From: Planctomycetaceae bacterium
Lineage (GTDB): Bacteria > Planctomycetota > Phycisphaerae > Phycisphaerales > UBA1924
Assembly: GCA_027487735.1 (NCBI GenBank)
Contig: JAIYDA010000130.1
Location: 1,930 to 65,929, forward strand
DNA: 64,000 nt
Direction of reading: 5' to 3'
Shown here one piece after another: positions 1 to 17,214 of this stretch. Each line of letters begins with the position of its first letter. Position 1 is the stretch's first letter. Under the pieces are notes generated by a model that was not told the origin of the DNA, did no database searches, and saw only the letters and a list, made by a program, of their open reading frames with translations. Made by a program: the position numbers and the translations under genes.

Positions 1-1378
1 GCCAGAAGATGTCCAGGTTCGCCTTGTCGCGCTTCATCAGCTCGTCATAGTCAAAGGCTCGCCAGCGTCCTTCGGGTCCGACGCCGCTTTTCCCTTCCGC
101 CTCCGCCCATGTCGGCTTTCTCGTGTGCCGCCCGTCCGGCTTGTAGCACGCCACAAAATCGTCGAGGTCGGCCCGTTTCAGCGGTCGCTCCTTCTGCGTG
201 AAATGCATGTTGGTCCGCAGGTCATAGACCCACAGCTTCTTCGTCCACGGTGCTTCTTGCGCAGGCTTCGCGTCGAAGAACAACACATTGGCCTTCACGC
301 CCTGCGCATAGAAGATGCCCGTGGGGAGGCGCAATAGCGTGTGCACGTCAAACTGCTTCAGCAGGTTGCGCCGCACCGTCTCCCCCGCGCCGCCCTCGAA
401 GAGCACGTTGTCGGGTAGCACGACCGCCGCGCGGCCGTTCACTTTCAGCAGCGTCTTGATGTGCTGTACGAAGTTGAGCTGCTTGTTCTTGGTTGTCGTC
501 CAAAAATCTTGCCGCTCGTATGAGTTGTCTTCCTTCTCCAGCTCGCCGCCCTCGCCGACGATCGAGATGCTGCTCTTCTTGCCGAAGGGCGGGTTGGTCA
601 GAATCATGCTGAACCGCTCGCCGGGGTCGCTGGCAAGCGAATCCACCCCGCTCTTCACCGGGCACGGGTCCGCGTCGATGCCGTGCAGGTACAGATTCAT
701 GATGCACAGCCGCGCCGTGGCGGCGACCAATTCCCAGGCGTGCACGAAGTTCCGTTTGAGGTGCCTCTTTTGGTCCGGGTCCAGGTCGTTGCCGAAGTGG
801 TCCACGACGTACTTGTGCGCCGCGAGCAGGAACCCGCCCGTGCCCGCCGCTGGATCGCAGACGGTGTCCTCGGGCGTCGGGCGCATGACATCGACCATCG
901 CCTTGATCAGTTCCCTCGGCGTGAAGTACTGACCCGCGCCCTTGGGGCTCTCCGCCGCCGAGCGTGCCAGCAGCCCCTCATAGATGTCCCCCTTGATGTC
1001 CGAGTCCATCCGCGTCCACTGCTCGGCTCCGATCAGGTCCACGATCAGCCGCTTGAGCGTGGCCGGATTCTGGATCTCCATCCGGGCCTTCTTAAAAATC
1101 TCACCGAGCATCCCCGGCTTGTTCCCCAGTGTTTCGAGCACAAGGCGGTAGTGCGTCTCCAGCTCCGCGCCATCGAGCTTGAGCAGCGACTCCCACGACC
1201 ACTTCGCCGGCACGATCGCCGGCCGGTTGTACGGCGGCCGCGTCATTTCATCGGCCATCTTCAGGAAGAGCAGAAACGTGATCTGCTCGGTGTACGCCAT
1301 GTACGAAAGCCCGTCGTCCCGCAGGACGTGGGCGTAGTTCCAGGCTTTATTGACGATCTGGGAGGTTTCTGGAGGCAT
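1..1378 (-). CDS. hsdM: Type I restriction-modification N6-adenine DNA methyltransferase subunit M; 3' end runs off the window
   Basis: Absent from the ORF track because the window edge truncates it. My translation of the minus strand from the ATG at 1378-1376 gives MPPETSQIVNKAWNYAHVLRDDGLSYMAYTEQITFLLFLKMADE... The SAM motif DPAAGTGGFL and catalytic NPPFG are present. It is co-directional with hsdR/hsdS. Confidence 0.9.
   Translation of the reverse strand, partial: MPPETSQIVNKAWNYAHVLRDDGLSYMAYTEQITFLLFLKMADEMTRPPYNRPAIVPAKWSWESLLKLDGAELETHYRLVLETLGNKPGMLGEIFKKARMEIQNPATLKRLIVDLIGAEQWTRMDSDIKGDIYEGLLARSAAESPKGAGQYFTPRELIKAMVDVMRPTPEDTVCDPAAGTGGFLLAAHKYVVDHFGNDLDPDQKRHLKRNFVHAWELVAATARLCIMNLYLHGIDADPCPVKSGVDSLASDPGERFSMILTNPPFGKKSSISIVGEGGELEKEDNSYERQDFWTTTKNKQLNFVQHIKTLLKVNGRAAVVLPDNVLFEGGAGETVRRNLLKQFDVHTLLRLPTGIFYAQGVKANVLFFDAKPAQEAPWTKKLWVYDLRTNMHFTQKERPLKRADLDDFVACYKPDGRHTRKPTWAEAEGKSGVGPEGRWRAFDYDELMKRDKANLDIFW
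1326..1378 (-). repeat. Copy 1 of a 53-nt direct repeat (the true hsdM start region); partner at 2521-2573
   Basis: Ungapped hand alignment of plus strand 1326-1378 against 2521-2573 gives 37 of the first 40 and 43 of 53 positions identical. Both copies end in the complement of an ATG. Confidence 0.85.
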
Positions 1379-1386
1379 AAATGTCG

Positions 1387-2460
1387 TCACCTTGCGATGT
1401 GTGCCGGAGTGAGCGCCATCAAAGTCTTCACCGCATCAGCGCCCTTGGGCAGGAGATAGTGTCTGCGGAGCTTCCGAAGGCTGATGTAGCCGCTCGGGTC
1501 GCTCTCCCACTCGCCAGAAATCTTGCGGTAGAGGGAAAAGCACCCGCCGTCACCGACAAGTATCTTTGAGCAGTTGTGGAGTTGGTGTTTCTCGCAATAG
1601 CCGACAGCTTGCTCGACAACATCCTGGAGGGGATTGTCCATGCCCTTGGCCTCGCACACGAGCCCGCACGAGGACGGAGTTGTTGGCGCGTGCGTAAACA
1701 CGGCCAAGTCAATCTTCCGCCATTCAACCGCCAAGAGCTGCTCGGACCACCCGAGGGCGAGCATGAGCGGGAGGATCATGTGGGCGACGACCTCGTGCTC
1801 GGTCGGTCGCCCCGGCGATCGTTCCTCGCCGTACCAAGCAAGCAGGCCACGGAGTTTCCGGATTGCGCGTTCAACGTGCAGGCAAGCCTCGTAGCCTAAT
1901 CCTTCTCGAAAGAGAGCGTCGGACAACTGCTCCGGGCTGAGCGGCGCGGGCGGCACTTCTGGCAGGTCTCGAAGAGAACGGCGCGTTACCTGCGGAAGAA
2001 GGTGGCGGATAGGGTCCAGACTCGTCGCATCTTTAACGCGCGAGAACGTTGTCACTCGTGGCCGATGTTGAAACAAGCCACTCGAAGACTGGATTTGTTG
2101 GAGCGCTGCATCGTGCTGCCGTTGCCAGATGACACGGCGGCAATGCTCAAGATCCCACCCGTAGATATCGTCGAAGAGCGTGGTGTGGAAGTAGTCACTC
2201 TCCACCACACCGATGGAAAGCACGTTGTACCCAGAGCGCAGGAGCACCAAGTCACCCGACTGCACCTCGGTCGCAATTTGACGGATGTACGTGATCTTGC
2301 CCTCGCCCTCCACTTGAGCCTCTGGATTCTCGTCATAGAGGCTCGATGAATAGGGCCCGAACCGGCCCGGTCCGAGGAACATCACATCGTGATCGAGAAA
2401 CAGGCGCTGATAGCGTCGTCCCTTCTCCCCGCACGCGATTTGCCATACCTGAGGATTCAC
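1387..2460 (-). CDS. Cassette gene B: hypothetical nuclease with an unassigned N-terminal module and an HsdR_N-like PD-(D/E)xK endonuclease domain
   Basis: The ORF track gives 1387..2466 with a TTG start. I prefer the GTG at 2460, preceded by AGGAG (2468-2472) at a 7-nt spacing. The C-terminal half reads EHEVVAHMILPLMLALGW...IDLAVF...VCEAKG, the same D...ExK pattern as the N-terminus of the hsdR in this window (FADYLL...VIEAKSEG). The N-terminal ~130 aa (VWQIACGEKG...GDLVLLRSGYNVLSIGVVESDY) are unassigned. Third-position GC looks lower than in the housekeeping genes. Confidence 0.6.
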   Translation of the reverse strand: MNPQVWQIACGEKGRRYQRLFLDHDVMFLGPGRFGPYSSSLYDENPEAQVEGEGKITYIRQIATEVQSGDLVLLRSGYNVLSIGVVESDYFHTTLFDDIYGWDLEHCRRVIWQRQHDAALQQIQSSSGLFQHRPRVTTFSRVKDATSLDPIRHLLPQVTRRSLRDLPEVPPAPLSPEQLSDALFREGLGYEACLHVERAIRKLRGLLAWYGEERSPGRPTEHEVVAHMILPLMLALGWSEQLLAVEWRKIDLAVFTHAPTTPSSCGLVCEAKGMDNPLQDVVEQAVGYCEKHQLHNCSKILVGDGGCFSLYRKISGEWESDPSGYISLRKLRRHYLLPKGADAVKTLMALTPAHIAR

Positions 2461-2573
2461 TCGCAAGCTCCTAGGGAACGGCCGATGGAAACGGTTTGCG
2501 ACCGCTCCTTACTCTGTAGAACGTGGGCGTACTTCGAGGCTTTGTTGACGATCTGGGAGGAGTTAGCCGTCAT
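2457..2573 (-). pseudogene. hsdM-prime: duplicated first ~19 codons of hsdM fused to 19 unrelated codons, forming a 38-codon leader ORF coupled to gene B
   Basis: Hand translation gives MTANSSQIVNKASKYAHVLQSKERSQTVSIGRSLGACE*, compared with the hsdM start MPPETSQIVNKAWNYAHVL. Its ATG (2573) lies 4 nt after the stop of gene A. Its TGA (2459-2457) overlaps the GTG start of B (2460-2458) as GTGA. Confidence 0.6.
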
Positions 2574-2577
2574 GCGT

Positions 2578-3981
2578 TCATGCTCGATGTTCTCTTGTCG
2601 AATCAAACGACTGTGCCAGCAGGCAAGCAATCCTGTACACAGTCCAAACGCGGGATATCAACGGCACATCAGGTAGGTTCCACCCATCGCCGTTCGACCA
2701 AGACCATTTCTCCAGCGCATTTCGATCATTCGCGGCCGCCGCCGCACCAAGCTCCGCTGCCACGGACTTAATGGAAGGTGTTGCTTCGGTGGACTTCGAA
2801 ACAAACAAGGCGCACGTGCGAAGCGCATCGCAGACGATCTTGTCTCGTACCGCTTCGCGCACACACGACCAATCGAAACGGCTCTCGAGGGCATTCAACA
2901 GATCTTCAATGGCTCGAAATTCCTCGGAGTTCATGTCGACAAGCCTGGCAGCGGCCTTGTCGCGTGTAAGCAAAGAACGCGCGGACGCCCACACCTCACC
3001 AGACTCTATGGCCTTCGCGAGAAGCGTGCGTGCGCTATTGCTCGTCTCGACGACAGGCGGCTTCTCCACAGGCGCCAAGCTTTGGGCTATAGCCTCGCGA
3101 CTGAGTGCTTTCAAGATCCGTGCACGCCAGCGAACGCGCTCAAACGCTGTCAGAGATGCAACATGGCCGGAATCCCCAGTGTCCGCGTCGTTCACGGCTC
3201 GGCGGTCATACCCGTGGACGTAGAGCGACCTGGATACATAAGCCCCATTGAAAAATGCGCGCCGTTCAGGATCATCGCCATACCGACTGCACAAAGCGTT
3301 CACGAATCGACGTTGCCCATCGCTTCTGGTGTCAATGCCCATTGCAGCTTCGATGGCAGCGCAGTGCGTGGCACAGTCATGCGCAAAGCTGCCAAATAGT
3401 TGGTCATTGAAATGAGTGCGAAAGTACTGGCGAACCGCGACGATGCGGCGGTCTTGCGGATCGTGAGCCATGAGCGCGAGTAGGGCGCTCGCGTCTGCTC
3501 GGTCAACATGAAGTCGCCTTGCTCTGTCCATTCCACGGATAGAGAGGGGCGGGAACACACGAAAGTATTTGGCGCTTTCCATGGCCCTCACGTACTTTGA
3601 GTATAAAGTAACGTTTTGCGACGGGTCACTGGCGTCGCCGGGCACAGACAATCCGTAACAGGCGAATTGCTCCGCCGCAATGCTTTGACGGCCATCGTCG
3701 GCCAACCAATGCAGTACGGCTGCGATCTCCTCCATGTATCGCTGCAGCCAGTCGGGATCATCCGAGCGCACCAAAGTGCCGTAGATGGGGTCGCCGTCGC
3801 GACCTTCCCATGTGTATGGCAATGTCCGAAAAATCGTCATGTATTCCGGACGCTTGCGACCCATCCGCGTGTTCCATACCTCGTCGCTGTCGTCCAAGAC
3901 CTCCGCTTTGCCAAGTGCCAACGACTGCGCTTCACCGTGCTTCCACTGAACCGACAAGTATGGTAACCACAAGAAAATCAC
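2578..3981 (-). CDS. Cassette gene A: hypothetical protein with a candidate HEPN-type Rx4H motif
   Basis: The ORF track gives 2578..4362, but everything upstream of 3981 overlaps hsdS. The GTG at 3981 overlaps the hsdS stop (GTGA) and follows AGGAAG. An alternative ATG lies at 3864. The motif SRSLYVHG (R-x4-H) follows the helical-looking FAHDCATHCAAIEAAMGI. There is no P-loop and no recognisable R, M or S domain. Confidence 0.55.
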   Translation of the reverse strand: MIFLWLPYLSVQWKHGEAQSLALGKAEVLDDSDEVWNTRMGRKRPEYMTIFRTLPYTWEGRDGDPIYGTLVRSDDPDWLQRYMEEIAAVLHWLADDGRQSIAAEQFACYGLSVPGDASDPSQNVTLYSKYVRAMESAKYFRVFPPLSIRGMDRARRLHVDRADASALLALMAHDPQDRRIVAVRQYFRTHFNDQLFGSFAHDCATHCAAIEAAMGIDTRSDGQRRFVNALCSRYGDDPERRAFFNGAYVSRSLYVHGYDRRAVNDADTGDSGHVASLTAFERVRWRARILKALSREAIAQSLAPVEKPPVVETSNSARTLLAKAIESGEVWASARSLLTRDKAAARLVDMNSEEFRAIEDLLNALESRFDWSCVREAVRDKIVCDALRTCALFVSKSTEATPSIKSVAAELGAAAAANDRNALEKWSWSNGDGWNLPDVPLISRVWTVYRIACLLAQSFDSTREHRA

Positions 3982-5588
3982 TTCTTGGTACTTCCTAGGG
4001 AGTGGACCTTTGCTTTGACCCGTGAAGCCGGAGGACAGGAACGTGGCGATGAACCTGCTTGAGTGTCCACGACAATCGGACGGTCGCTCGGGTCTTGCGG
4101 CACGAGTTCGCCCTCGAAGGCGCGTTTGAGGATGGCTTGGCGGAGGCGGGCGGCGCGCTGGAGGGCGTGCTCGACCTGCGTCTCGGCGGCGTCGGCGACG
4201 GAGAGGCGGCGATCGACCTCGGCGACGATCTCGGCTTGTTCGGCGAGCGGCGGCAACGGAAGCGGAAGCGCCCGCGACATGCTCACCGAAATGTTGTGCT
4301 GTCCAGCCGTTGCCTTCGCCTGAGAGGTGATCCATTGCAGAACCGGATCGGCGAGCAGGCATGTCGCCAGATAACGGTTAGTGATGCCTGGGCCTGCGCG
4401 GAAAGACACGATAGCTTGGTTCGTGTTCCATTCCGGGTAGAGGTCCGGCACGATCGACACTTTGCCCAGCGGAGGCCCCACGATGTTCATCAGCACATCG
4501 CCCGGAATCGCACGAGAGCGATTCAGTCTCCCGCGGTGTGTCTGCCGCGCGATGAATGTGGGCTTGATTGTGAAGTCCAATGCGCCGGTGAAGGTGAGGT
4601 TGTAGACCTTGATGAACGGCACTTCTCCGCTCCCCGCCTGCATCTCGTCAGGCGGCGGCGTGCTTCCGCTCTCGATACTCGTGCAAAGCTGAAGCGATCC
4701 CGCCCATGACCACGAGGGTGGCAGTTGGAAGGGGAATGGGGCATGGGGCGACGGCGGCTCCTCGTACTTCTCCCTCCACCCCTTCGGTGGCGTCTTCCCC
4801 GCCTCCTTGAACTTGCGGAGTTGGTCCTGCTCCCACTTGGCGCGGCGTTCGGCGAGGATGCGTTCGAGGAGCTTGGCGGCGGGCTCGGTGGCCGGGTGCC
4901 GCGTGCGCCATTCCTCGGTCAGACGCCCCTCGACGGCGGCCTTGAGCACGGCCGCGCGGTACCGCTTCAGGTTCGCCCTCACCCGCTCCAACGCGGCCAC
5001 GCCCGCATCGAGGTCGGAGAAGAGTTCCTCGATCTTGGCAACGATGCGGCGCTGTTCGGCAACAGGTGGCAGACCGATGCTCAGCGCCTTCGCCTCCGGA
5101 AAGTAGATCGTTGTGTGCGTGGTGCCCTTACCGAACTTGAGCAGGCTATCGCGCTCGGCGATTAGCAAGTACATCAAGAACTCTGGCGCGAGCGCATCGG
5201 AACACTTCCAGTTCACGAAGTCTTGGCTCGTCGCCATCGGTCGGTCCATGATGGTGACGTAGCCGACGGATGCCGTTCGAGAGAGGCAAACAGTGTTCGC
5301 TGGCAGCAGCACAGATGCCGAGTTGTCCAACCCGGCCTGCGTCACCGTCTGAAAGGTGGAGGTGATCCTGCGCCCGTGGAATACGCGGGCGTCCTTGATG
5401 CCGATCCACGCGATGTCGCCGTCCCAGTATTTCGGATGATTGCGACTCGGCGTATGGCCCGTCGCCATCTCCGCGACATCAGTGAGGCGCACCCACTTCC
5501 AGCCGCGGGCGAGCGGCATGTCGGGGATGCCCACCGCGATCGCGTACTTCCCTGGCGTAACGTCTGATGTGGCGGCGCGACCACTCAT
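3978..5588 (-). CDS. hsdS: Type I restriction-modification specificity subunit S (two target-recognition domains)
   Basis: The conserved-region signatures LPPVAEQRRIVAKIEELFSDLDAGVAALERVRANLKRYRAAVLKAAVEG and LPPLAEQAEIVAEVDRRLSVADAAE each follow a variable domain. The ATG at 5588 overlaps the hsdR stop (ATGA). Confidence 0.9.
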   Translation of the reverse strand: MSGRAATSDVTPGKYAIAVGIPDMPLARGWKWVRLTDVAEMATGHTPSRNHPKYWDGDIAWIGIKDARVFHGRRITSTFQTVTQAGLDNSASVLLPANTVCLSRTASVGYVTIMDRPMATSQDFVNWKCSDALAPEFLMYLLIAERDSLLKFGKGTTHTTIYFPEAKALSIGLPPVAEQRRIVAKIEELFSDLDAGVAALERVRANLKRYRAAVLKAAVEGRLTEEWRTRHPATEPAAKLLERILAERRAKWEQDQLRKFKEAGKTPPKGWREKYEEPPSPHAPFPFQLPPSWSWAGSLQLCTSIESGSTPPPDEMQAGSGEVPFIKVYNLTFTGALDFTIKPTFIARQTHRGRLNRSRAIPGDVLMNIVGPPLGKVSIVPDLYPEWNTNQAIVSFRAGPGITNRYLATCLLADPVLQWITSQAKATAGQHNISVSMSRALPLPLPPLAEQAEIVAEVDRRLSVADAAETQVEHALQRAARLRQAILKRAFEGELVPQDPSDRPIVVDTQAGSSPRSCPPASRVKAKVHSLGSTKK

Positions 5589-8410
5589 GCCACCAACCTC
5601 TCATTCATCTCGCTCAGCAGCGTCGGCAGCGACTCGCCGAAGACCTCGTACGCCGCGCCCAGCCCGCCCATCTGCTTGAAGGGCACATCCTCCAGCGCCT
5701 CGGCTTCGATGGCCAGCGATGCGGCGATGTGGTCCTTGATTGCATCGAGCCACTTGCGCTGCTGGGGGGCGAACGTCACTCCCGCCTTCGCTTTATCCGC
5801 CAGCCACGCCGCGTACCGCTCCTCCACGACCTCCTCAACCGGTACCAGCGGCGTCTTGCCATCGATCGCGTGTTTGACGAGCGCGACAAGATCGACGAGC
5901 TGTTTGCCACCTTTGCCCTTGGTAGTGCCTGTCTCAACGGCCTCGAAGGCGTTCCACAAGCGGCCGACTGTTTCGGGCTTCCTGGCATCGACAAAGAACG
6001 GTGACCCACTCAGTTTCAACGCGAGTTCCTTGACCTGTCCATACCGCAGGCCTGCACGGTAGGGCCGACTGTAGAGGATACGGATTGCCTCGATCTCGTC
6101 CTTGTTCTCTTCGACGAATGTCTTGAATGAAGTGACAACCGAACGTGCCTTTTCGAGTGCGGCCGCATCGAACCCTACTCGAACAAGCGAGTCATGATTG
6201 ACTTCGTCAAAAACCTGCTCGGCGGCGGCCTTTACACGGAGGATGGTGTTGCGGAGCTTTGGGTTGAGGAACGGCTTGAGTGCCTCGGCCATCGCCGCCC
6301 GCTCGACCTGTTCGATCTGATGCTCGGTGGGTTCTTGACCTGGCGGAAGCTTGAGAGCTTCTGCGGCTCGCGCGGCGTTGATGTCGGTGTCGATACTCGC
6401 GAGCAGCGCGGCTGCAAGGCTTGAGAGGCCCTTGCCGCCCGCTTCCTTGCTGATCTCTGCTTTGCGATCATCGTCAAGCTCGCGATCGAGTCGCGCGAGG
6501 CGAGAGGCGAGCGTTGAGACGAGATCGTCACTCACTGCACCTGCTGCAACGGTGTTGAGAACTTTCTCGAGCGCAACCGACGGCTGGCGGTCGAGGGGTT
6601 TGGAGAGGGACTTCTCAGATTCGGTGACGCCGACGGCATCGACGATGACGAAGTGGGTCTTTTTGCCGCCTGGAGCGTGCTTCGTCACAACCTCGAGCAT
6701 GTCGGGGTGAATAATGCGACACCCTCGCCCCTTCATTTGCTCAAAGTAAGCAGCCGAAGTGATGTTCCTCATGAATAACAAACACTCAAGAGGTTTTACA
6801 TCCGTTCCCGTTGCAATCATGTCAACAGTGACGGCGACGCGAGGAAAGTGCTGGTTGCGAAAATCAGACAACAACTCATCGGGCTTTTTGCCAGTAGACT
6901 TACTTGTGATCTTTTGACAGAAATCGTTTCCTTTGCCGAACTCTTCTCGGATAATGCGAGTGATATCGTCAGCGTGCAAGTCAGTCTTGGCGAAGACGAG
7001 CGTCTTGGGACATTCGTATGTGCCAGTTTCTGCATCGAAACGGCCTGGAAAGATCTCCGGCAGCTTATCTCGAAACGTGCGAATCACCAGACGTATCTGA
7101 CTCTCGTTTACGACATCTCGGTCGAGTTGGGTGCCGGTGTACTGGACATCATCGTCGAGCGCTTCGTATCGCTTCTTGCGGGTTGTGCGATCACGGCGGG
7201 GCACGAGATAGTCTGGCTTTTTCGCCAGCGTCGCCCCGTCCTTCGTGACTTTGGTTTCGATGCGATACACGTCGTATCCGACATTGACGCCATCGAGCAC
7301 GGCTTGCTCGTGCGTGTACTCCATCACGAGGTTGCCGTTGAAAAAACCGATGGTTTGGGCGCTTGGAGTGGCGGTCAGACCAACGAGCGTGGCGTCGAAG
7401 TACTCCAACACCTGACGCCACACGTTGTAGATGGAGCGATGACACTCGTCGATGATGATGAAGTCGAAGAACTCTGGGGGAATCTTGTCGTTGTACACAA
7501 CGGGCAGAGGCTGCTTGATGAGAGCGTTTGCGGCCTCAAACATCGACGACTCTTCGCCCGTGTCATCAAAGGCTTCCTCCCCTTTGAGGATCGAGTAGAG
7601 CCGCTGGATCGTGGTGATGACGACCTTCGAAGCCGGATCAATCGAGTTCTTCTTGAGATGCTGAACGCCGTACTCCTCCGTGAACTTGTATTGGTTGTAT
7701 GGCGAGGAAAACTGCTGAAACTCATTCAGCGTTTGGCGTCCCAGGTTGTTCCGGTCTACGAGAAAGAGAACGCGCTTTGCACCACCAAACTTGATGAGTC
7801 TATAGGCAATGTTGCAAGCGGTGAATGTCTTGCCCGCACCCATGACCATTTGAATGAGAGCGCGCGGATGGTCGGCAGCGAGTGATCGCTCGAGATTCGT
7901 TATTGCCGTAACCTGCTTCTCCCAGAGCCGTGAAGCGTCCAACGGGGGCATGCCGCGAAGACTGGCTCGAAGCTGCGAATCGAGGCTCGCGAGTCTCGCC
8001 AACTCTTCCGGGCGATGGAATGCAAAGACCTCGCGGCTGCGAGGGTGCGGATCAAGAGTATTGGTGAAGTGGGTAACCGCCCCGGTGGACTCGTATGCAA
8101 ACGGCAACGGTGTCCCTTCGGGCATCCACCTCGGAAGGCCCTTGGGCAACCCCGCCGTGTACTTTGCCGACTGAGTTTCGACGCCCCGAAGGGTGTGGCC
8201 CTCAGACTTGGCCTCAATGACCCCAATCGCCTTCCCCATCGAGTACAGGAGATAGTCGGCAAAGCCGGTCGCGAGCGGAAACTCGCGTACCGCGACCCCG
8301 ATGCCCGCTCGAAGGTCCATGTCGCGATAGTCCTGCACACTCCAGCCGCACTGCGCCAAGATCCGATCGATCGTCTGCCGCGCGAGTTGTTCCGGGGAAG
8401 ATGGTGGCAC
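5585..8410 (-). CDS. hsdR: Type I restriction enzyme R subunit (HsdR_N nuclease plus SF2 helicase/translocase)
   Basis: N-terminus is QTIDRILAQCGWSV...FADYLL...VIEAKSEG. Walker A is MVMGAGKTFT, the DEAH-like box is IIIDECHRS, and the helicase C motifs are MIATGTDV and QMKGRGCR. The start codon at 8410 is GTG. Confidence 0.9.
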   Translation of the reverse strand: MPPSSPEQLARQTIDRILAQCGWSVQDYRDMDLRAGIGVAVREFPLATGFADYLLYSMGKAIGVIEAKSEGHTLRGVETQSAKYTAGLPKGLPRWMPEGTPLPFAYESTGAVTHFTNTLDPHPRSREVFAFHRPEELARLASLDSQLRASLRGMPPLDASRLWEKQVTAITNLERSLAADHPRALIQMVMGAGKTFTACNIAYRLIKFGGAKRVLFLVDRNNLGRQTLNEFQQFSSPYNQYKFTEEYGVQHLKKNSIDPASKVVITTIQRLYSILKGEEAFDDTGEESSMFEAANALIKQPLPVVYNDKIPPEFFDFIIIDECHRSIYNVWRQVLEYFDATLVGLTATPSAQTIGFFNGNLVMEYTHEQAVLDGVNVGYDVYRIETKVTKDGATLAKKPDYLVPRRDRTTRKKRYEALDDDVQYTGTQLDRDVVNESQIRLVIRTFRDKLPEIFPGRFDAETGTYECPKTLVFAKTDLHADDITRIIREEFGKGNDFCQKITSKSTGKKPDELLSDFRNQHFPRVAVTVDMIATGTDVKPLECLLFMRNITSAAYFEQMKGRGCRIIHPDMLEVVTKHAPGGKKTHFVIVDAVGVTESEKSLSKPLDRQPSVALEKVLNTVAAGAVSDDLVSTLASRLARLDRELDDDRKAEISKEAGGKGLSSLAAALLASIDTDINAARAAEALKLPPGQEPTEHQIEQVERAAMAEALKPFLNPKLRNTILRVKAAAEQVFDEVNHDSLVRVGFDAAALEKARSVVTSFKTFVEENKDEIEAIRILYSRPYRAGLRYGQVKELALKLSGSPFFVDARKPETVGRLWNAFEAVETGTTKGKGGKQLVDLVALVKHAIDGKTPLVPVEEVVEERYAAWLADKAKAGVTFAPQQRKWLDAIKDHIAASLAIEAEALEDVPFKQMGGLGAAYEVFGESLPTLLSEMNERLVA

Positions 8411-8825
8411 GTGAGGGCTCGAACTTGAGAAAGTTACACGACGCGAAGTGTAACCAGGCTTCGATGAGCACAGCGGCTTGGGTGTAGAGCCGCGCAGAAG
8501 AGCGGGCAGACATCATGTACATACCTCGCAAGTACAGTCCCACGCCTGCAAGCCTGAGCATTCCGCTTAGTGTTTCCGAGACGGATGTGCAGCAGCACTT
8601 GCGCCGCTGATGCTGGCTTCAATCTGCTGCTACACCCATGGTCTGCATTCCGCTCAAGGCCCTTGTACAGCCTGAGCCTCCTCGACAGGCGGCTGAGCCT
8701 TCGGGAGTGTTCTTCCCGGTCCTCGCCCGTTCCATTCGGTGTGGTACGTCATCGTTGCCGCGCGAGCGTGCCGACTCTCAGGCTGTGGTTGCTCCGAAGT
8801 TGGCGCACTGACCGACTCGGCGCGC

Positions 8826-8886
8826 GTATGCGCTTGTGATTTGTGGCGATTGTGCGGCGTATGCGCTGGTATGCGCGGGTATGCGC
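8826..8886 (+). repeat. Iteron-like GTATGCGC repeats: one copy at 8826, then three copies phased at 10 bp (8859, 8869, 8879)
   Basis: Read directly from cgcGTATGCGCttg...ggcGTATGCGCtgGTATGCGCggGTATGCGCtac. The repeats lie 40-100 nt upstream of the first island HTH gene, in the divergent gap between hsdR and the integration module. Confidence 0.6.
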
Positions 8887-8954
8887 TACTCGTTTCTGGA
8901 TACTCCTGGCCGGCGAAAGGACGCGCTATGCGGCTGCCCACGGAAGTGTTCAAG

Positions 8955-9155
8955 ATGGCACAAGGAATGGAACTGTTGACGAGTCGAGAGTTGGCGAAGC
9001 ACCTTCGGGTGAAGCCCGAGACTGTGCGAGACTGGGCGCGGCGCGGGCGAATCCCCGTGCTGCGGCTTTCGCCAAAAGTGATCCGCTACAACGCCGACGC
9101 TGTAATCGCGGCGCTGTTGGCCACGCCAGTGGAGGGGGTGTCACATGGCAAGTGA
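8955..9155 (+). CDS. Excisionase/AlpA-type helix-turn-helix DNA-binding protein
   Basis: MAQGMELLTSRELAKHLRVKPETVRDWARRGRIPVLRLSPKVIRYNADAVIAAL. Alternative ATG starts lie at 8928 and 8967. The 8739 start in the ORF track is unlikely. Confidence 0.7.
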   Translation: MAQGMELLTSRELAKHLRVKPETVRDWARRGRIPVLRLSPKVIRYNADAVIAALLATPVEGVSHGK

Positions 9156-9390
9156 TGCAAGCACCTCAGCGACGACGGCCCCGTTGTTGATTGACGCCAA
9201 GGAGACGTGCGCCCTGCTGTGCCTTGGCGAACGGCGTGTTTGGGAGCTGTCGAACTGTCGCGCCATCCCGTCATTCAAGATCGGCAAGTCGCGTCGGTAC
9301 TGCCCGGATGAACTGCGAGCGTGGATTCGTGCCGGATGCCCCACCGAACCTGGCGCGGGCGATCGACTTCGGAAGGCGGTGCGCCCATGA
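9145..9390 (+). CDS. Second excisionase-family HTH DNA-binding protein
   Basis: LLIDAKETCALLCLGERRVWELSNCRAIPSFKIGKSRRYCPDELRAWI. It overlaps the previous gene by 11 nt and the next by ATGA. Confidence 0.7.
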   Translation: MASDASTSATTAPLLIDAKETCALLCLGERRVWELSNCRAIPSFKIGKSRRYCPDELRAWIRAGCPTEPGAGDRLRKAVRP

Positions 9391-11951
9391 CCCTGACGCG
9401 GAACCACGCGACCACCGCATCTAGGCCTGAAGGGTGGTGCGGCATGAGCGACCCCGTACAACGAATCCTCACAGCCCTCCGCGACCACGGCCACGAACCC
9501 CGCAAGGCGGGCGCGGGCTGGACTTGCAACTGTCCGGCCCACGATGATCGCGCCCCTTCCCTTTCAATCCGAGAGGGCGACGACGGCCGCGCGTTGGTGC
9601 ATTGCCACGCCGGTTGCACCGTCGATGCGGTGTGCGACGCGCTCGCGCTGCGACCCTCCGACCTGTTCGCACGCGACCCGAGTGGGCGGAACGGACACGC
9701 ACCCAAGTCGCGGCGACGTGGCGACGGCGACGAAACTACACGCAAGCCCGCGCGCGGCGGGGATTCTGTCACCGTCGCCAGTGACGCCACGGACGGGCGT
9801 ACGTTCCGCACGGCCCGCGAAGCCGTCGCCGAGTTGGAGCGGCGACACGGCCCACGATCGACATACTGGACCTATCACAACGCGGCGGGCGAGCCCGTGG
9901 GGCTGGCGGTGCGATGGAACACGCCCACCGGGAAAGAAATGCGCCCGGTGTCGCGGAAGGCGGACGGGTCGCGCTGGTACATCGGCGGGATGCCCACACC
10001 CCGACCGCTGTACGCGCTGCCCGAAGTGCTAGCGACGCCACCGGGAGGGCGAGTGTGGGTGTGCGAGGGCGAGAAGGCGGCGGACGCGGCCCGAGCAATC
10101 GGACTGCTGGCAACAACAAGCCCGCACGGCGCGAAGTCGGCAGCGAAGGCGGATTGGTCGCCGTTGGCTGGGCGCGAGGTTGTGATCCTGCCCGACCATG
10201 ACGACGCAGGCGAGGCGTACGCCGACGACGTGGCGCGGCTGGCGACAGCTGCGGGCGCGAGGTCGGTGAGGGTGGTTCGGCTGGTACAACTATGGGCAGA
10301 GATGCCCGAAGGGGGCGATATGGCGGACCTGCTTGAGCATCGCGGCGGGGAAGTGGACGGGACACGCGCGGCACTTGAGGCCCTCATCGACGCCTCCGAG
10401 GCGCGCAGTGTGGAGCCCGAGGCGAGAGAGGTTCCAGCGTTCAAACCCTTCCCGGTTGAGGTACTGCCCGAGCCGCTGCGCGCGTTCGTTATCCAGGCGG
10501 CAGATGCGATCGGGTGTGATGCGTCATTCGTGGCGTTGCCCCTGCTGTCTGGGCTCGCATCATCGATCGGGAACACCCACCGCATCGAGTTGAAGCGCGG
10601 ATGGACCGAGCCCGCGATCGTTTGGGCGGCGATTGTGGGCGAGAGCGGTACATCGAAGTCGCCCGCGATGGAGCTGGCCCTTCGTGCGATTCGCAAGCGG
10701 CAAGGCGCGGCGATGAAGGAACACGCCGAAGCGATGAAGCAGTACGAGGGTGCGCTCGCCCTGTACGAACGCGACTCGGGGAACTGGAAGAAGTCCAAGT
10801 CAAAAGAGCCCCCACCCGCGAAGCCCGACGCCCCGATCGCGGATCGGTGTTGGACCGACGACGCGACCACCGAAGCCCTTGCAGTTTTGCTGCAACAAAG
10901 CCCGCGCGGATTGCTCATGGTGCGCGATGAACTCGCCGGGTGGTTCAACTTCGACCGCTATGCGGGCGGCAAGGGCGGCGGCGACGCCGCGAAGTGGTTG
11001 GAGATGTTCGGCGGTCGCGAAATGGTGGTGGATCGCAAAGGGGGCGGCATGCTCTACGTGCCCCGCGCGGCAGTATCGATCGCAGGCGGTATCCAACCGG
11101 CGACGCTCCGGCGCGCGCTGGGGCAGGAACACCGCGACAACGGACTCGCGGCTCGGCTGCTGCTGGCCCATCCCCCCCGCAAGCCCAAGAAATGGACCGA
11201 AGCCGACATACAGCCCCACACAGAAGCTGCGCTGGCGGCGGTGTTCGATCGGCTCTTCGGACTGACGATGGAAACTGGCGACGAAGGCGACGAACGGCCC
11301 CGAGTCGTGACGCTCGCCGACGATGGAAAGTGGGCGTGGGTGCGGTTCTATAACGAACACGCGGGCGAGCAGGCGACCCTGTCGGGCGACGAGGCGGCAG
11401 CGTGGTCGAAGCTCGAGGGGTATGCGGCGCGGATTGCGTTGGTGGTTCACCTCACCCGCTGCGCAGCTGGCGATCCCACGATCGACGATCGGACCAAGGT
11501 TGACGCGTCGAGCGTCTCGGCAGGCGTCGTGCTAGCCCGATGGTTTGGTGACGAGGCCCGACGCGTCTACGCGATGCTTGGCGAGTCGGACGAAGAGCGG
11601 GCATTGCGCGAGCTGGTGGATTGGATCAGGCGCAAGGGCGGCACCGTGAGCGTGCGCGATCTGACGCGTGGACCGCGCGAGTATCGCAACGCTGAAAAGG
11701 CGAAGAAGGCACTCGGAGAACTGGTGACGCTGGGCGAGGGGCGGTGGGAAATCGATACCCACGCTGGCGGACGCGGGCGTCCTGTGGATCGGTTCCGGCT
11801 TGTCCAGCGTGGTGACACTGGTGACGGTGACACAAATGGAGGAAATGCGGCCGAGTATGGTATTTCTGTCGCCGTCACCACCGACGCCGATCGCAAGATG
11901 ACCACCGGCGCACGGGGAACTTTCGGGGATTGGCGCGCGGTGAATCGATGA
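9387..11951 (+). CDS. Island primase/replication protein: zinc-binding N-terminus, Toprim domain, DUF3987-like C-terminal domain
   Basis: Zn motif is CNCPAHDDRAPSLSI...VHCHAGC. Toprim is VWVCEGEKAADA...ILPDHDDAGEAYA. The DUF3987-like region is AAIVGESGTSKSPA...CWTDDATTEALAVLL...VRDELAGWF. I chose the ATG at 9387 (ATGA overlap with the upstream stop) over the track start at 9321. Confidence 0.75.
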   Translation: MTLTRNHATTASRPEGWCGMSDPVQRILTALRDHGHEPRKAGAGWTCNCPAHDDRAPSLSIREGDDGRALVHCHAGCTVDAVCDALALRPSDLFARDPSGRNGHAPKSRRRGDGDETTRKPARGGDSVTVASDATDGRTFRTAREAVAELERRHGPRSTYWTYHNAAGEPVGLAVRWNTPTGKEMRPVSRKADGSRWYIGGMPTPRPLYALPEVLATPPGGRVWVCEGEKAADAARAIGLLATTSPHGAKSAAKADWSPLAGREVVILPDHDDAGEAYADDVARLATAAGARSVRVVRLVQLWAEMPEGGDMADLLEHRGGEVDGTRAALEALIDASEARSVEPEAREVPAFKPFPVEVLPEPLRAFVIQAADAIGCDASFVALPLLSGLASSIGNTHRIELKRGWTEPAIVWAAIVGESGTSKSPAMELALRAIRKRQGAAMKEHAEAMKQYEGALALYERDSGNWKKSKSKEPPPAKPDAPIADRCWTDDATTEALAVLLQQSPRGLLMVRDELAGWFNFDRYAGGKGGGDAAKWLEMFGGREMVVDRKGGGMLYVPRAAVSIAGGIQPATLRRALGQEHRDNGLAARLLLAHPPRKPKKWTEADIQPHTEAALAAVFDRLFGLTMETGDEGDERPRVVTLADDGKWAWVRFYNEHAGEQATLSGDEAAAWSKLEGYAARIALVVHLTRCAAGDPTIDDRTKVDASSVSAGVVLARWFGDEARRVYAMLGESDEERALRELVDWIRRKGGTVSVRDLTRGPREYRNAEKAKKALGELVTLGEGRWEIDTHAGGRGRPVDRFRLVQRGDTGDGDTNGGNAAEYGISVAVTTDADRKMTTGARGTFGDWRAVNR

Positions 11952-12208
11952 TGGGAACGCTTGCACAATCCGAAGTAATGGGGTACAGTATGAGTATGGG
12001 AAGCATCACGGGAACACTTCGAAGGGCCTTGGAGCAGTGCGGGCAAACCCGCTATGCGGTCAGCAAGGCGACGGGGATACCCGAATCCACGTTGTCGCGG
12101 TTCGTGGCGGGTGGAAAGCCCTTACGGGGCGAAAACATGGACAAACTGGCGGACTACCTGGGGCTGGTGTTGGTGGCAAAGGCGGGCAAAGCTCGAAAGG
12201 ACCGGTGA
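11948..12208 (+). CDS. Small XRE-like HTH protein
   Basis: RYAVSKATGIPESTLSRFVAGGKPL. The ATG at 11948 overlaps the primase stop. Later in-frame ATGs are also possible starts. Confidence 0.55.
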   Translation: MMGTLAQSEVMGYSMSMGSITGTLRRALEQCGQTRYAVSKATGIPESTLSRFVAGGKPLRGENMDKLADYLGLVLVAKAGKARKDR

Positions 12209-12211
12209 GAC

Positions 12212-13738
<1,527 letters not shown>

Positions 13739-14514: not shown

Positions 14515-17214
14515 CTACTTGGGCGGGGCGGCTTCGAGGGCGGCGGCTTCGGCTTCGGTTTTGGCGATCCAGTTTTGGCGGGCTTGCCACTGGGAGCCTG
14601 GGGTGTCTTGGGTGAAGACCTCGCAGGCGGCACGCATGGCGGCGGCGGCGGAGCGGAGGTGGGTTGCGTTGGATGTTGCATTGCCGAGATCGCGGAGGGC
14701 GAGGGCGATGTTGCTTTGCGTCAAGGCTCGGTCTTGCGGCAGGGCGGTGCGGGTATACACCTGCAGCGCGAGGCGATACGCAGCGACCGCCTCGGCGAGC
14801 GAGCGTGCGCGGTCGGAGCCTTCCCTGGCCGCGGCTTGGTCACGGAGGGCGTTGGCAAGGTTGTTCTGCGTGCGTGCCCAGTCTTGCGGGAGGGTGGCGC
14901 GGGTGTGCACCTCCAGCGCGAGTTGGCAGGCAGCGACCGCCTCCGCGAGCAGGCGTGCGCGGTCGGTGCCTTCGCTCGCAGCGGCTTGGTCGCGGAGGGC
15001 AATGGCAAGGTTGTTCTGCGTCATGGCCCAGCTTTGCGCGAGGGCGGTGCGGGTGCGCACCTCCAGCGCGAGGCGGCAGGCAGCGACCGCGTCTGCGAGC
15101 AGGCGTGCGCGTTCGGTGCCTTTGCTGGCGCTGGCTTGGTCGCGAAGGGCATTGGCAAGGTTGTTCTGCGTGGCTGCCCAGTCCTGCGGGAGGGCGGTGC
15201 GGGTGTACACCTCCAGCGCGCGGCGGTAGGCAGCGACCGCCTCTGCGAGCAGGCGTGCGCGGTCGGGGCCTTCCCTGGCCGCAGCTTGGTTGCGGAGGGC
15301 AGCGGCAAGGTTGTTCTGCGTGGCTGCCCAGCTTTGCGGGAGGGCGGAGCGGGTACGAACCTCGAGCGCGAGGCGAAGGGCAGCGACCGCCTCGTCGAGC
15401 AAGAGTATGCGGTCGGGGCCTTCACTGGCGGCGGCTTGGTCGCGGAGGGCAGCGGCAAGGTTGTTCTGCGTCATTGCCCAATCATGCGGGAGGGCGGTGC
15501 GGGTGTACACCTGCAGCGCGAGGCGATACGCAGCGACCGCCTCGGCGAGCGAGCGTGCGCGGTCGGCGCCTTCGGTGCCAGCGGCTTGAGCGCTGAGGGC
15601 AACGGCAAGGTTGTTCTGCGTCATGGCCCAGTCTTGCGGGAGGGCGGTGTGGGTGAAAACCTCTAGCGCGAGGCGGAAGGCAACGACCGCCTCGGCGAGC
15701 AATCGTGCACGGTCGGCGCCTTCGGTGGCGGCGGCTTGGTCGCGGAGGGCATTGCCAAGGTTGTTCTGCGTGGCTGCCCAGCTTTGCGGGAGGGCGGAGC
15801 GGGTACGAACCTCGAGCGCGAGGCGGAAGGCAGTAACCGCCTCTGCGAGCAAGCCTGCGCGGTCGGCGCCTTCGCTGACGGCGGCGTGGTTGCAGAGGGC
15901 AATGGCAAGGTTGTTCTGCGTGCCTGCCCAGTCTTGCGGGAGGAAAGTGCGGGTGTAGAACGCGAGCACTTCGCGATAGAGGTCGATCGCTCGGGCTCTG
16001 CGCTTGGTGATGGGGGCACCTTCGCTGGTGCTTGCCCATTCGCTCAGTGTGTCCGCGAGCCATGACGTGGCATTGGCGTAGGAGACTGGTGCGGCGTCCT
16101 TGGGTGCGAGGGCGCGGGCTTGTTCGAAGGCGGTGGCGGCTTGCTCGAAGCTGCGCTGGGCGTGCAGGGAGCGGCCTTGGAGCATGCGGGCTTCGCGCTC
16201 GGCGGTGGTGGCGGCTTCGAGCTCGGCTTGCATCGTGGTGACCACTTGCTGCGCGGCGAGGCGTTTTTGTTGGGCTTGTTCGGCGGCGGCGCCAGCGTTC
16301 GTGGCGGCGCTCGCGAAGTTTTTGTCGGCGAAGTCGGCGAGGGCTTTATCAAGAAAAGCTGCGGCGGGGTCGGCGCGGATGGCGGCGATGAAGCTGGTGA
16401 TGCCGGTGCGGAGCGTGTCTTGGGAGATGCCAAACTCGGTGGCGACGTGCTCGATGGCTTTGTCTTGGATTTGTGCGGGCGTGAGCGGGGGTGTTGCGTG
16501 CAGATTGGCGGATCGCTGGCTTTCGAGCTTGCCGTAGGCCTCGACGACGAACTCGGTCATTTTTCGCTGCTGGCGCAATGCTTCTTCGGCAGTGTCGCAC
16601 TTTGCTTGCAAGAGCTCTCTGTCCTTCTTGGCTTGGGCTCGCACGCGGCGGAGCTTTTGCTGCACGAGGTGCAACTCCTCGCGGATGGCGTTGACCCTCT
16701 CTTGCAGTGCTAGGACGCGCTCTTTGAGTGAGGCGTGGGTTGCAACGGGCTCAAAGATGTGGTCCGTGCCCATGAGGGCTGCGCGGTGGGCGTGTTGGAG
16801 GGCACGTTTGTCGGCGGGTTCGGCGGGCTCCCGCGAGCCGTCGGGCAGGGTGCGTGGGGGGTCGTAGGGAAAGTTGTCGGCGCAGATGAAGACGTAGACG
16901 GGGAGACCGAGTTGCTTGGCGATGTCGAACTCGAGCTGGGTGTAGCTGCGGCGTGGGTCGGTCTCGGCGCGCTGGGTGGGTTCGAAGCCGTAGGCCTCGC
17001 CCACGATGTGGATGACGGCGCGGCATTCGCCGATTGTTTTGGTGAGCATTTCGCGCACGGTGGCGGCGCTGGGTGGGAAGTCTGTCTGCTCGACGGAGAT
17101 GCAGCCGAGCTTTCTGAGTGCGTCGCTGGCGATCTGGCGGCAGGAGCGAAGGTCGCGCGAGGTGGCGCTGATGAAGATTTTGGGGGAGATGTCGGGCGGG
17201 GCGGGGGGAGCCAT
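14515..17214 (-). CDS. DUF4062/TIR-like N-terminal domain, coiled coil, and ~9 x 50-residue TPR-like repeats
   Basis: N-terminus is KIFISATSRDLRSCRQIASDALRKLGCISVEQTDF...VIHIVGEAYG...YTQLEFDIAKQLGLPVYVFI. The coiled coil is RVNAIREELHLVQQKLRRVRAQAKKDRELLQAK. Repeated units have the form ALPQDWAxTQNNLAxALRDQAAAxEGxDRARLLAEAVAAYRLALEVxTRT. No NTPase motif is present. Confidence 0.8.
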   Translation of the reverse strand: MAPPAPPDISPKIFISATSRDLRSCRQIASDALRKLGCISVEQTDFPPSAATVREMLTKTIGECRAVIHIVGEAYGFEPTQRAETDPRRSYTQLEFDIAKQLGLPVYVFICADNFPYDPPRTLPDGSREPAEPADKRALQHAHRAALMGTDHIFEPVATHASLKERVLALQERVNAIREELHLVQQKLRRVRAQAKKDRELLQAKCDTAEEALRQQRKMTEFVVEAYGKLESQRSANLHATPPLTPAQIQDKAIEHVATEFGISQDTLRTGITSFIAAIRADPAAAFLDKALADFADKNFASAATNAGAAAEQAQQKRLAAQQVVTTMQAELEAATTAEREARMLQGRSLHAQRSFEQAATAFEQARALAPKDAAPVSYANATSWLADTLSEWASTSEGAPITKRRARAIDLYREVLAFYTRTFLPQDWAGTQNNLAIALCNHAAVSEGADRAGLLAEAVTAFRLALEVRTRSALPQSWAATQNNLGNALRDQAAATEGADRARLLAEAVVAFRLALEVFTHTALPQDWAMTQNNLAVALSAQAAGTEGADRARSLAEAVAAYRLALQVYTRTALPHDWAMTQNNLAAALRDQAAASEGPDRILLLDEAVAALRLALEVRTRSALPQSWAATQNNLAAALRNQAAAREGPDRARLLAEAVAAYRRALEVYTRTALPQDWAATQNNLANALRDQASASKGTERARLLADAVAACRLALEVRTRTALAQSWAMTQNNLAIALRDQAAASEGTDRARLLAEAVAACQLALEVHTRATLPQDWARTQNNLANALRDQAAAREGSDRARSLAEAVAAYRLALQVYTRTALPQDRALTQSNIALALRDLGNATSNATHLRSAAAAMRAACEVFTQDTPGSQWQARQNWIAKTEAEAAALEAAPPK
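14690..16040 (-). repeat. About nine tandem 150-bp coding repeats (the TPR-like units)
   Basis: The anchor ggcaaggttgttctgcgt (or a variant) recurs at 14704, 14854, 15004, 15154, 15304, 15454, 15604, 15754 and 15904, exactly 150 bp apart. Confidence 0.85.

Follow-up and report, generated by a model that had tools for sequence, protein, structure and literature searches.

The window analysed here is a 64,000-nucleotide stretch of contig JAIYDA010000130.1 from a Planctomycetaceae bacterium (assembly GCA_027487735.1), and its reverse strand carries a Type I restriction-modification operon in which a gene of no recognised family, here called gene A, lies directly downstream of the specificity subunit gene hsdS. 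Gene A occupies positions 2578 to 3981 on the reverse strand and encodes 467 residues, with its TGA stop at 2578-2580; this extent, which a preliminary description of the locus had also given (about 467 residues), is backed by the list of open reading frames, the translation and the full-length homologues described below. The GTG start of gene A (3981-3979) overlaps by two bases the TGA stop of hsdS (3980-3978; hsdS at 3978 to 5588, reverse strand, Pfam Methylase_S E = 4.6e-27, two repeats), forming a GTGA at 3978 to 3981 on the reverse strand that can be read directly in the sequence and that suggests, as had been proposed, that gene A is translationally coupled to hsdS. Some 9 nucleotides 5' of the GTG there is an AGGA. 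Alignments of homologues begin at residue 1-7 of gene A, share an N-terminal block M-x-x-x-W-L/M-P-Y and reach the C-terminus; because homologues align from this point, the GTG is preferred as the start, and a 594-residue reading from position 4362, which runs into hsdS, was rejected. The G+C content of gene A is 0.55-0.59, compared with 0.61-0.66 for hsdS and hsdM.

An exhaustive HMMER search of 1.84 billion representative proteins recovered 81 homologue clusters (formed at 50% identity) at E <= 1e-3, 30 of them at E <= 1e-30. Most members are 450-480 residues long, the closest is 36% identical to gene A, and all that carry a name are called 'hypothetical protein'; the clusters comprise 1-6 members each. 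The preliminary description had taken gene A for an orphan, an impression that arises because a word-indexed protein search recovers gene A alone; even with the family alignment as query such a search returns gene A and one member. The sources are mainly metagenomes, and all four of the hits in GTDB species genomes, whose loci were retrieved with a 9-sequence family alignment, are Planctomycetota metagenome-assembled genomes; tblastn of plasmid and phage collections returned no family member. Gene A has no match at E <= 1 in Pfam, NCBIfam, PADLOC or PHROGs, the family consensus (whole protein and each domain) has none in Pfam, sequence and profile searches of the PDB gave none, and no family member consistently matches any Pfam, PADLOC or NCBIfam model. 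The family is rare and undescribed in all four of the libraries queried, and its domain architecture is new. Two of the 81 members show a ThsB/TIR-like PADLOC match (best E = 9.4e-5).

The putative catalytic site of the family is a conserved R-x4-H motif, R251-S-L-Y-V-H256 in gene A (positions 3214 to 3231, reverse strand), in which R251 is encoded by codon 3231-3229 and H256 by codon 3216-3214, and which reads SRSLYVHG with its flanking residues. The occurrence of such a motif is by itself uninformative, being at chance level: with 47 R and 10 H among its 467 residues, gene A would be expected to contain about 3.0 R-x(4-6)-H matches, and it has three. R251 and H256 stand out because they are conserved and not because the motif is rare; the remaining matches, at residues 153 and 184, are unconserved. 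Counted over the 81-member family alignment, with denominators that vary by column, R251 is retained in 62/66 homologues and H256 in 62/65, as are S252 (56/66), G257 (63/65), Y248 (58/65) and G246 (61/65) around them, giving a block [LI]Y-x-x-R-S-x-x-V-H-G across the family. The preliminary description had singled out SRSLYVHG and had named conservation of its R and H among homologues as a check, and on both points its reading of the sequence holds. Nearer the N-terminus, E211 is found in 66/71 homologues, D202 in 65/70, C207 in 59/70 and R178 in 63/68. Among 36 full-length members, which are 17-35% identical to gene A, the invariant columns are six, namely D31, R44, P45, G68, R251 and H256. 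The most distant member, P0081, has N after the motif R (RNRYTH). Some members look decayed from their sequences: the entire R-x4-H region is missing from P0056 (321 residues), and in P0054 the motif R is replaced by C (LYACCVKFVHG).

Given the 81-sequence alignment, AlphaFold produced a confident three-domain model of gene A (predicted local distance difference test, pLDDT, 93.5; predicted template modelling score, pTM, 0.92); from the single sequence the pLDDT is 38. The N-terminal domain (residues 1-160; positions 3502 to 3981, reverse strand) is alpha/beta by its modelled secondary structure and contains 12 columns that are at least 90% conserved, including P7, D31, W36, R44, P45, G68, W78, E104, K129, P144 and R149. 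It has no Pfam or Foldseek match, and it may serve as a sensor or in partner binding. The central domain (residues 161-305; 3067 to 3501, reverse strand) is helical and HEPN-like, with helices at 162-173, 178-188, 199-214, 222-234, 238-256, 260-265, 271-282 and 286-302, and its 145 residues hold 12 columns conserved to the same degree, as many as the 160 residues of the N-terminal domain. Helix 178-188 bears R178, helix 199-214 bears D202, C207 and E211, and helix 222-234 forms an insert; in the model, helices 199-214 and 222-234 correspond to the helical segments that had been noted before the motif. The codon of E211 (gaa, 3349 to 3351, reverse strand), in a CAxLEAAL helix, specifies the candidate for the acidic residue of HEPN helix-2. 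The C-terminal domain (residues 306-467; 2581 to 3066, reverse strand), helical over 317-466, is the most variable part of the protein, with three columns at least 90% conserved (S327, W331 and W371). A second, degenerate HEPN domain in this C-terminal region, in the manner of Cas13, was considered and rejected (hhalign of the central against the C-terminal domain, E = 0.023 with negative similarity), as was the idea, prompted by one PADLOC match at E = 0.052, that the N-terminal domain makes the protein CARF-HEPN (Csm6-like), because Foldseek retrieves none of the many CARF-HEPN structures.

HEPN domains are four-helix up-down bundles in which an Rx4-6H motif closes helix-3 and continues into the loop toward helix-4, with a polar residue, typically N, D or H, after the R and a conserved acidic residue in helix-2 (PMC3710099). 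By DSSP, and with respect to secondary structure only, R251-H256 is predicted to form the C-terminal end of helix 238-256, and G257 to open the loop 257-259. The residue after the R is S252, polar, yet outside the typical N/D/H set. The acidic residues E211 and D202 lie in helix 199-214, two helices before the motif with helix 222-234 between, and four members (P0011, P0033, P0036 and P0054) carry inserts of 40-60 residues exactly between the acidic helix and the motif helix. As modelled, gene A appears to fit the features of the HEPN description that can be addressed by secondary structure and conservation, with E211 as a candidate for the acidic residue.

ApeA, reported by Gao et al. in 2020, is said to be a single-gene HEPN anti-phage protein, and its domain to be represented in Pfam by HEPN_Apea (PF18739). 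No other Pfam model receives any signal from the gene A family. Of its most divergent members, P0060 matches HEPN_Apea over residues 235-268 (E = 0.053) and P0081 over residues 290-313 (E = 0.22), both below the gathering score of 24.4 bits, and in both of them the R and the H fall on profile positions ~91 and ~96. One family member has a PADLOC Csx1/Csm6 match at E = 0.052. Escherichia coli ApeA was recovered via its first 399 nucleotides, taken from the supplement of bioRxiv 10.64898/2026.03.20.713152, and located in NZ_CP042899; 21 relatives were collected and 18 sequences (ApeA and 17 others) aligned. Y518, R521, N522 and H526 are invariant in this alignment, as is E389 in WIALExLF. Comparison of the gene A family with the ApeA profile by hhalign pairs the CAxLEAAL helix with the WIALExLF helix that contains E389, with a score that is not significant, and a comparison of helix-3 fragments sets LY-x-x-RS-x-x-VHG opposite IY-x-LRNKI-x-H, again with a score short of significance.

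The neighbourhoods of homologues were informative at 11 loci, and in 5/11 of them restriction-modification genes stand beside the homologue. At L008 hsdS is followed 9 nucleotides on by the homologue and then by a weak PDDEXK_4 protein; at L012/13 the homologue comes after an SNF2 helicase, a 1423-residue MmeI-like methylase and a 661-residue protein; at L007 1.4 kb separates it from a DEAD helicase, a 385-residue protein, HsdM and HsdS. The homologue at L009 is in an island with CTD3/MComp1, AAA_15, DO-GTPase and MZB helicase genes, and two others have a mobile-element context, lying between an HTH_17 gene and a DUF4365 gene (L010) or adjoining an integrase fragment (L016). Housekeeping genes surround the homologues at L001, L003, L004 and L014. 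A fixed downstream partner of the toxin-antitoxin or two-gene kind was rejected, the downstream proteins being mutually dissimilar and none of them like gene B of the window (described below). Several homologues have overlapping downstream genes, some PD-(D/E)xK-like (PDDEXK_4 at L008, DUF4365 at L010), and there is no fixed partner gene because these downstream genes are unrelated to one another. The best-supported reading of these arrangements is that the gene A family is a self-contained single-gene defence module, often but not always nested in restriction-modification operons.

Two of these loci have further features. In L012 (756-9169) the homologue, P0003, comes fourth in what looks like an operon, the methylase is MmeI/Eco57I-like with a target-recognition domain, and the 661-residue protein is unannotated; a 236-residue protein follows P0003 at L012/L013, and the restriction type differs from that of the window. 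In L009 (1-17407) the homologue, P0015, sits in a dense island of conflict systems, with CTD3 and MComp1 of the ABC-3C type and, as further neighbours, an AAA_15/SMC_N ATPase, HEAT-repeat and MotA_ExbB proteins, a DO-GTPase and a giant DEAD/MZB/Peptidase_S24 helicase.

A sister operon in another Planctomycetota genome (L002) bears on the history of the gene A slot. The operon of the window begins with the restriction subunit gene hsdR (5585 to 8410, reverse strand; Pfam ResIII, EcoEI_R_C and HSDR_N) and runs hsdR-hsdS-A-(B)-hsdM, the last gene seen being the methylase gene hsdM (1 to 1378, reverse strand), which was identified by its translation and is cut by the window edge; the order in L002 is hsdR-hsdS-A-hsdM, and in L008 hsdS-A. 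Between the window and L002 the amino acid identity is 77.5% for hsdR and 88% for hsdM, and within hsdS the conserved parts share 84-86% of their DNA sequence. The L002 homologue (7974-9359) occupies the identical slot with 32% protein identity to gene A and no detectable DNA similarity, between flanks that retain 72-86% DNA identity. This suggests that the slot has undergone cassette replacement and not divergence in place, and arms-race genes typically show such allele turnover.

Gene B (359 residues; 1387 to 2466, reverse strand), which is absent from L002, lies between gene A and hsdM in the window. It is preceded by a dead copy of the 5' end of hsdM (2518 to 2573, reverse strand), recognised by alignment to the true hsdM start and by the L002 junction: its ATG (2573-2571) is in frame 4 nucleotides 3' of the gene A stop, 46 nucleotides of it (2518-2563) are 87% identical to the L002 hsdM start, and it reads MTANSSQIVNKASKYAHVL where the real hsdM reads MPPETSQIVNKAWNYAHVL. 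In L002, 6 nucleotides separate the stop of the homologue from the ATG of hsdM. To judge from the sequences, the dead copy is a recombination scar marking the ancestral A-hsdM junction, and because it precedes gene B, with the real hsdM after, gene B is read as a later insertion and hsdS-A-hsdM as the ancestral order. Gene B has no Pfam or NCBIfam match, and its association with gene A is not conserved; its residues 54-131 match PADLOC PDC-S02 weakly (E = 7e-5). By eye, its C-terminal part has a D...E-x-K pattern (IDLAVF...LVCEAKG) reminiscent of PD-(D/E)xK nucleases.

The whole operon is carried on an integrative element beside a tRNA-Lys gene (13665-13738, reverse strand), with a tyrosine integrase (12212-13732), an HTH_3 regulator (11930-12208), a DUF3987 protein (9321-11951) and two HTH_17 excisionase-like genes (8739-9390). 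Just past the tRNA-Lys gene, an 899-residue protein with an N-terminal DUF4062/TIR_2 domain (14515-17214, reverse strand) may be another immune gene.

We propose that gene A encodes a divergent HEPN-type defence ribonuclease (RNase) of new architecture, a reading that we hold to be about evenly poised between right and wrong. The central helical domain would be a highly divergent HEPN-type metal-independent RNase, whose active site would comprise R251, S252 and H256, with E211 and possibly D202 and Y248 assisting, and, like that of other single-HEPN proteins, would probably be completed between the two subunits of a homodimer. The N-terminal and C-terminal domains may sense infection or bind a partner and so keep the RNase off until it is triggered. 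Gene A, probably co-transcribed and translationally coupled with hsdS, would provide a second line of defence in which RNA is cut when restriction fails, following the scheme put forward for restriction-linked HEPN genes and the way in which ApeA works as a single gene.

This reading is favoured by motif, layout and context, but neither the profile comparisons nor Foldseek showed statistical homology or fold similarity, and several results weigh against it. Gene A lacks the Ex3[KR] version of the acidic motif, having no [KR] at +4. No significant profile match to a family of the HEPN clan was obtained in Pfam, NCBIfam, PADLOC or PHROGs. The profile-profile comparison for which the preliminary description had called did not connect the proteins either: with one HEPN family compared, hhalign of the gene A family against the ApeA profile (E = 0.13, 0.083 and 0.8) did no better than the reversed-sequence control (0.11-0.3), with E = 0.08-0.13 for ApeA set against E = 0.11 for the control, and in the full-domain comparison the two R-x4-H motifs were not aligned to each other. 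A Foldseek search with the pLDDT 93.5 model gave a best E of 1.3 in the PDB, which contains many HEPN structures, and 1.2 in BFVD. Housekeeping surroundings in 4/11 informative loci also count against the HEPN reading. The sole small-domain Foldseek entry, 2q00_B (E = 4.8, template modelling score 0.39), is a HEPN structure of the PaREP1 type (PMC3710099) and a weak signal in favour, but it is far from significant. The HEPN RNase of the preliminary description is therefore supported in part, by its conserved R and H and its HEPN-like layout, with no four-helix core recognised by Foldseek and no significant profile link.

The main rival to the HEPN reading is that gene A is a defence protein of new fold, in which the R/H/E/Y site is not that of a HEPN domain and the likeness of its R-x4-H is convergent or coincidental; the site could then be that of another hydrolase, a nucleotide or signal pocket, or an interface with the N-terminal domain. 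That so confident a model finds no structural neighbour in the PDB or BFVD, and that all of the HEPN profile tests are non-significant, is what such a protein would lead one to expect, and the N-terminal domain, equally conserved (12 columns each) and bearing the charged residues D31, R44, E104, K129 and R149, suggests a site shared by two domains; a pTM of 0.92 implies tight interdomain packing. Set against this are the position of the motif, the polar residue after its R, the acidic residue and the variable insert, all of which match the HEPN description, and the two independent members that match HEPN_Apea in the same register. We consider a new fold somewhat unlikely. A more specific form, in which gene A is a three-domain immune protein whose N-terminal and central domains build an undescribed active or sensing site with an R-x4-H look-alike, and in which selection favours it specifically in the slot between hsdS and hsdM of a single Type I lineage, with distant alleles taking each other's place there, we regard as unlikely; if true, gene A and the restriction complex would be in a functional dialogue unlike the PrrC paradigm.

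Gene A might instead be a non-catalytic accessory or regulator of the Type I complex, not toxic itself, which modulates the assembly of HsdS, HsdM and HsdR or acts as a decoy or sensor for anti-restriction proteins. The coupling of its start to hsdS, the divergent allele of the family held in the same slot of the sister operon, and the L008 homologue directly after hsdS would all suit such a role. Homologues at L001, L003, L004 and L014, however, have no restriction-modification genes nearby and that at L012 lies next to another restriction type, and the family therefore cannot depend on a single partner complex; moreover, residues R, S, H, E, D and Y that are nearly invariant would be more typical of catalysis. 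We think this role very unlikely. The four loci with housekeeping neighbours, together with a family found mainly in Planctomycetota and environmental samples, could also indicate a cellular role outside defence, with gene A a passenger of its mobile island. This is the explanation to which we give the least credence: three placements directly after hsdS and at least three beside restriction or defence genes among the 11 informative loci are far above expectation, the distribution is patchy with clusters of 1-6 members, the G+C content of gene A is below that of its flanks, and its allele has been replaced inside a conserved operon.

The principle of restriction-linked HEPN genes is already established, at least 16 clades of HEPN genes linked to restriction-modification having been catalogued in 2013 (PMC3710099) and embedded defence genes surveyed systematically in 2024 (bioRxiv 10.1101/2024.01.29.577857), and gene A is accordingly a solid candidate for testing and not a surprise. 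Should the HEPN reading be true, the family would represent a new RNase-effector architecture coupled to restriction-modification, of alpha/beta, HEPN and variable helical domains, and one missed by current defence-finding tools because it is absent from Pfam, NCBIfam, PADLOC and PHROGs. Its source phylum, Planctomycetota, has a poorly charted immune repertoire. The L002 sister operon offers a natural experiment, with a common hsdR/hsdS/hsdM backbone and slot and a 32%-identical allele, and suggests arms-race cassette exchange.

Among known systems, PrrC and RloC resemble gene A in being embedded in a Type I operon and in having an R...H motif of HEPN type (in gene A, a candidate one), and by analogy gene A too may be an RNase silenced by, or backing up, the restriction system, as proposed for PrrC/RloC (PMC3710099). 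They differ in having an N-terminal ABC/NTPase domain; for gene A, neither Pfam nor NCBIfam gave an NTPase match at E <= 1. Nearly all PrrC genes sit inside Type I systems (bioRxiv 10.1101/2024.01.29.577857), whereas the gene A family is embedded in about a third to half of its loci and is not confined to Type I. Of the comparison with PrrC/RloC drawn in the preliminary description, the operon position stands and the domain architecture does not. HEC-08 is a HEPN protein nested in a multi-gene defence system, in which mutating the H of Rx4-6H abolishes defence (bioRxiv 10.1101/2024.01.29.577857). Both HEC-08 and gene A were found by embedding reasoning (Payne et al. 2024, 'guilt by embedding'); unlike gene A, HEC-08 has zinc ribbons besides an N-terminal DUF3644 HEPN domain and occurs within Hma systems. 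Gene A and its family show no consistent match to any PADLOC v2 HEC or PDC model.

PADLOC and NCBIfam are expected to hold a model of ApeA, and gene A matches neither library. ApeA is predicted to be a homodimer triggered by RNA structure, with its active site across the homodimer and a pocket outside the HEPN domain that senses phage RNA structure (bioRxiv 10.64898/2026.03.20.713152). The two proteins differ in layout: ApeA has about 600 residues and a C-terminal HEPN domain, whereas in gene A the HEPN-like domain is central and followed by a 160-residue helical domain; the acidic residue and the R are about 130 residues apart in ApeA (E389 to R521) and 40 in gene A; and their N-terminal domains are unrelated (hhalign E = 0.28). 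Like ApeA, however, gene A is a single polypeptide with one R-x4-H, with non-HEPN domains and with no fixed partner gene, and common to both are the pattern [LI]-Y-x-x-R-[NS]-x-x-x-H and an upstream A-L-E-x-x-F/L helix, the E of which is invariant in ApeA.

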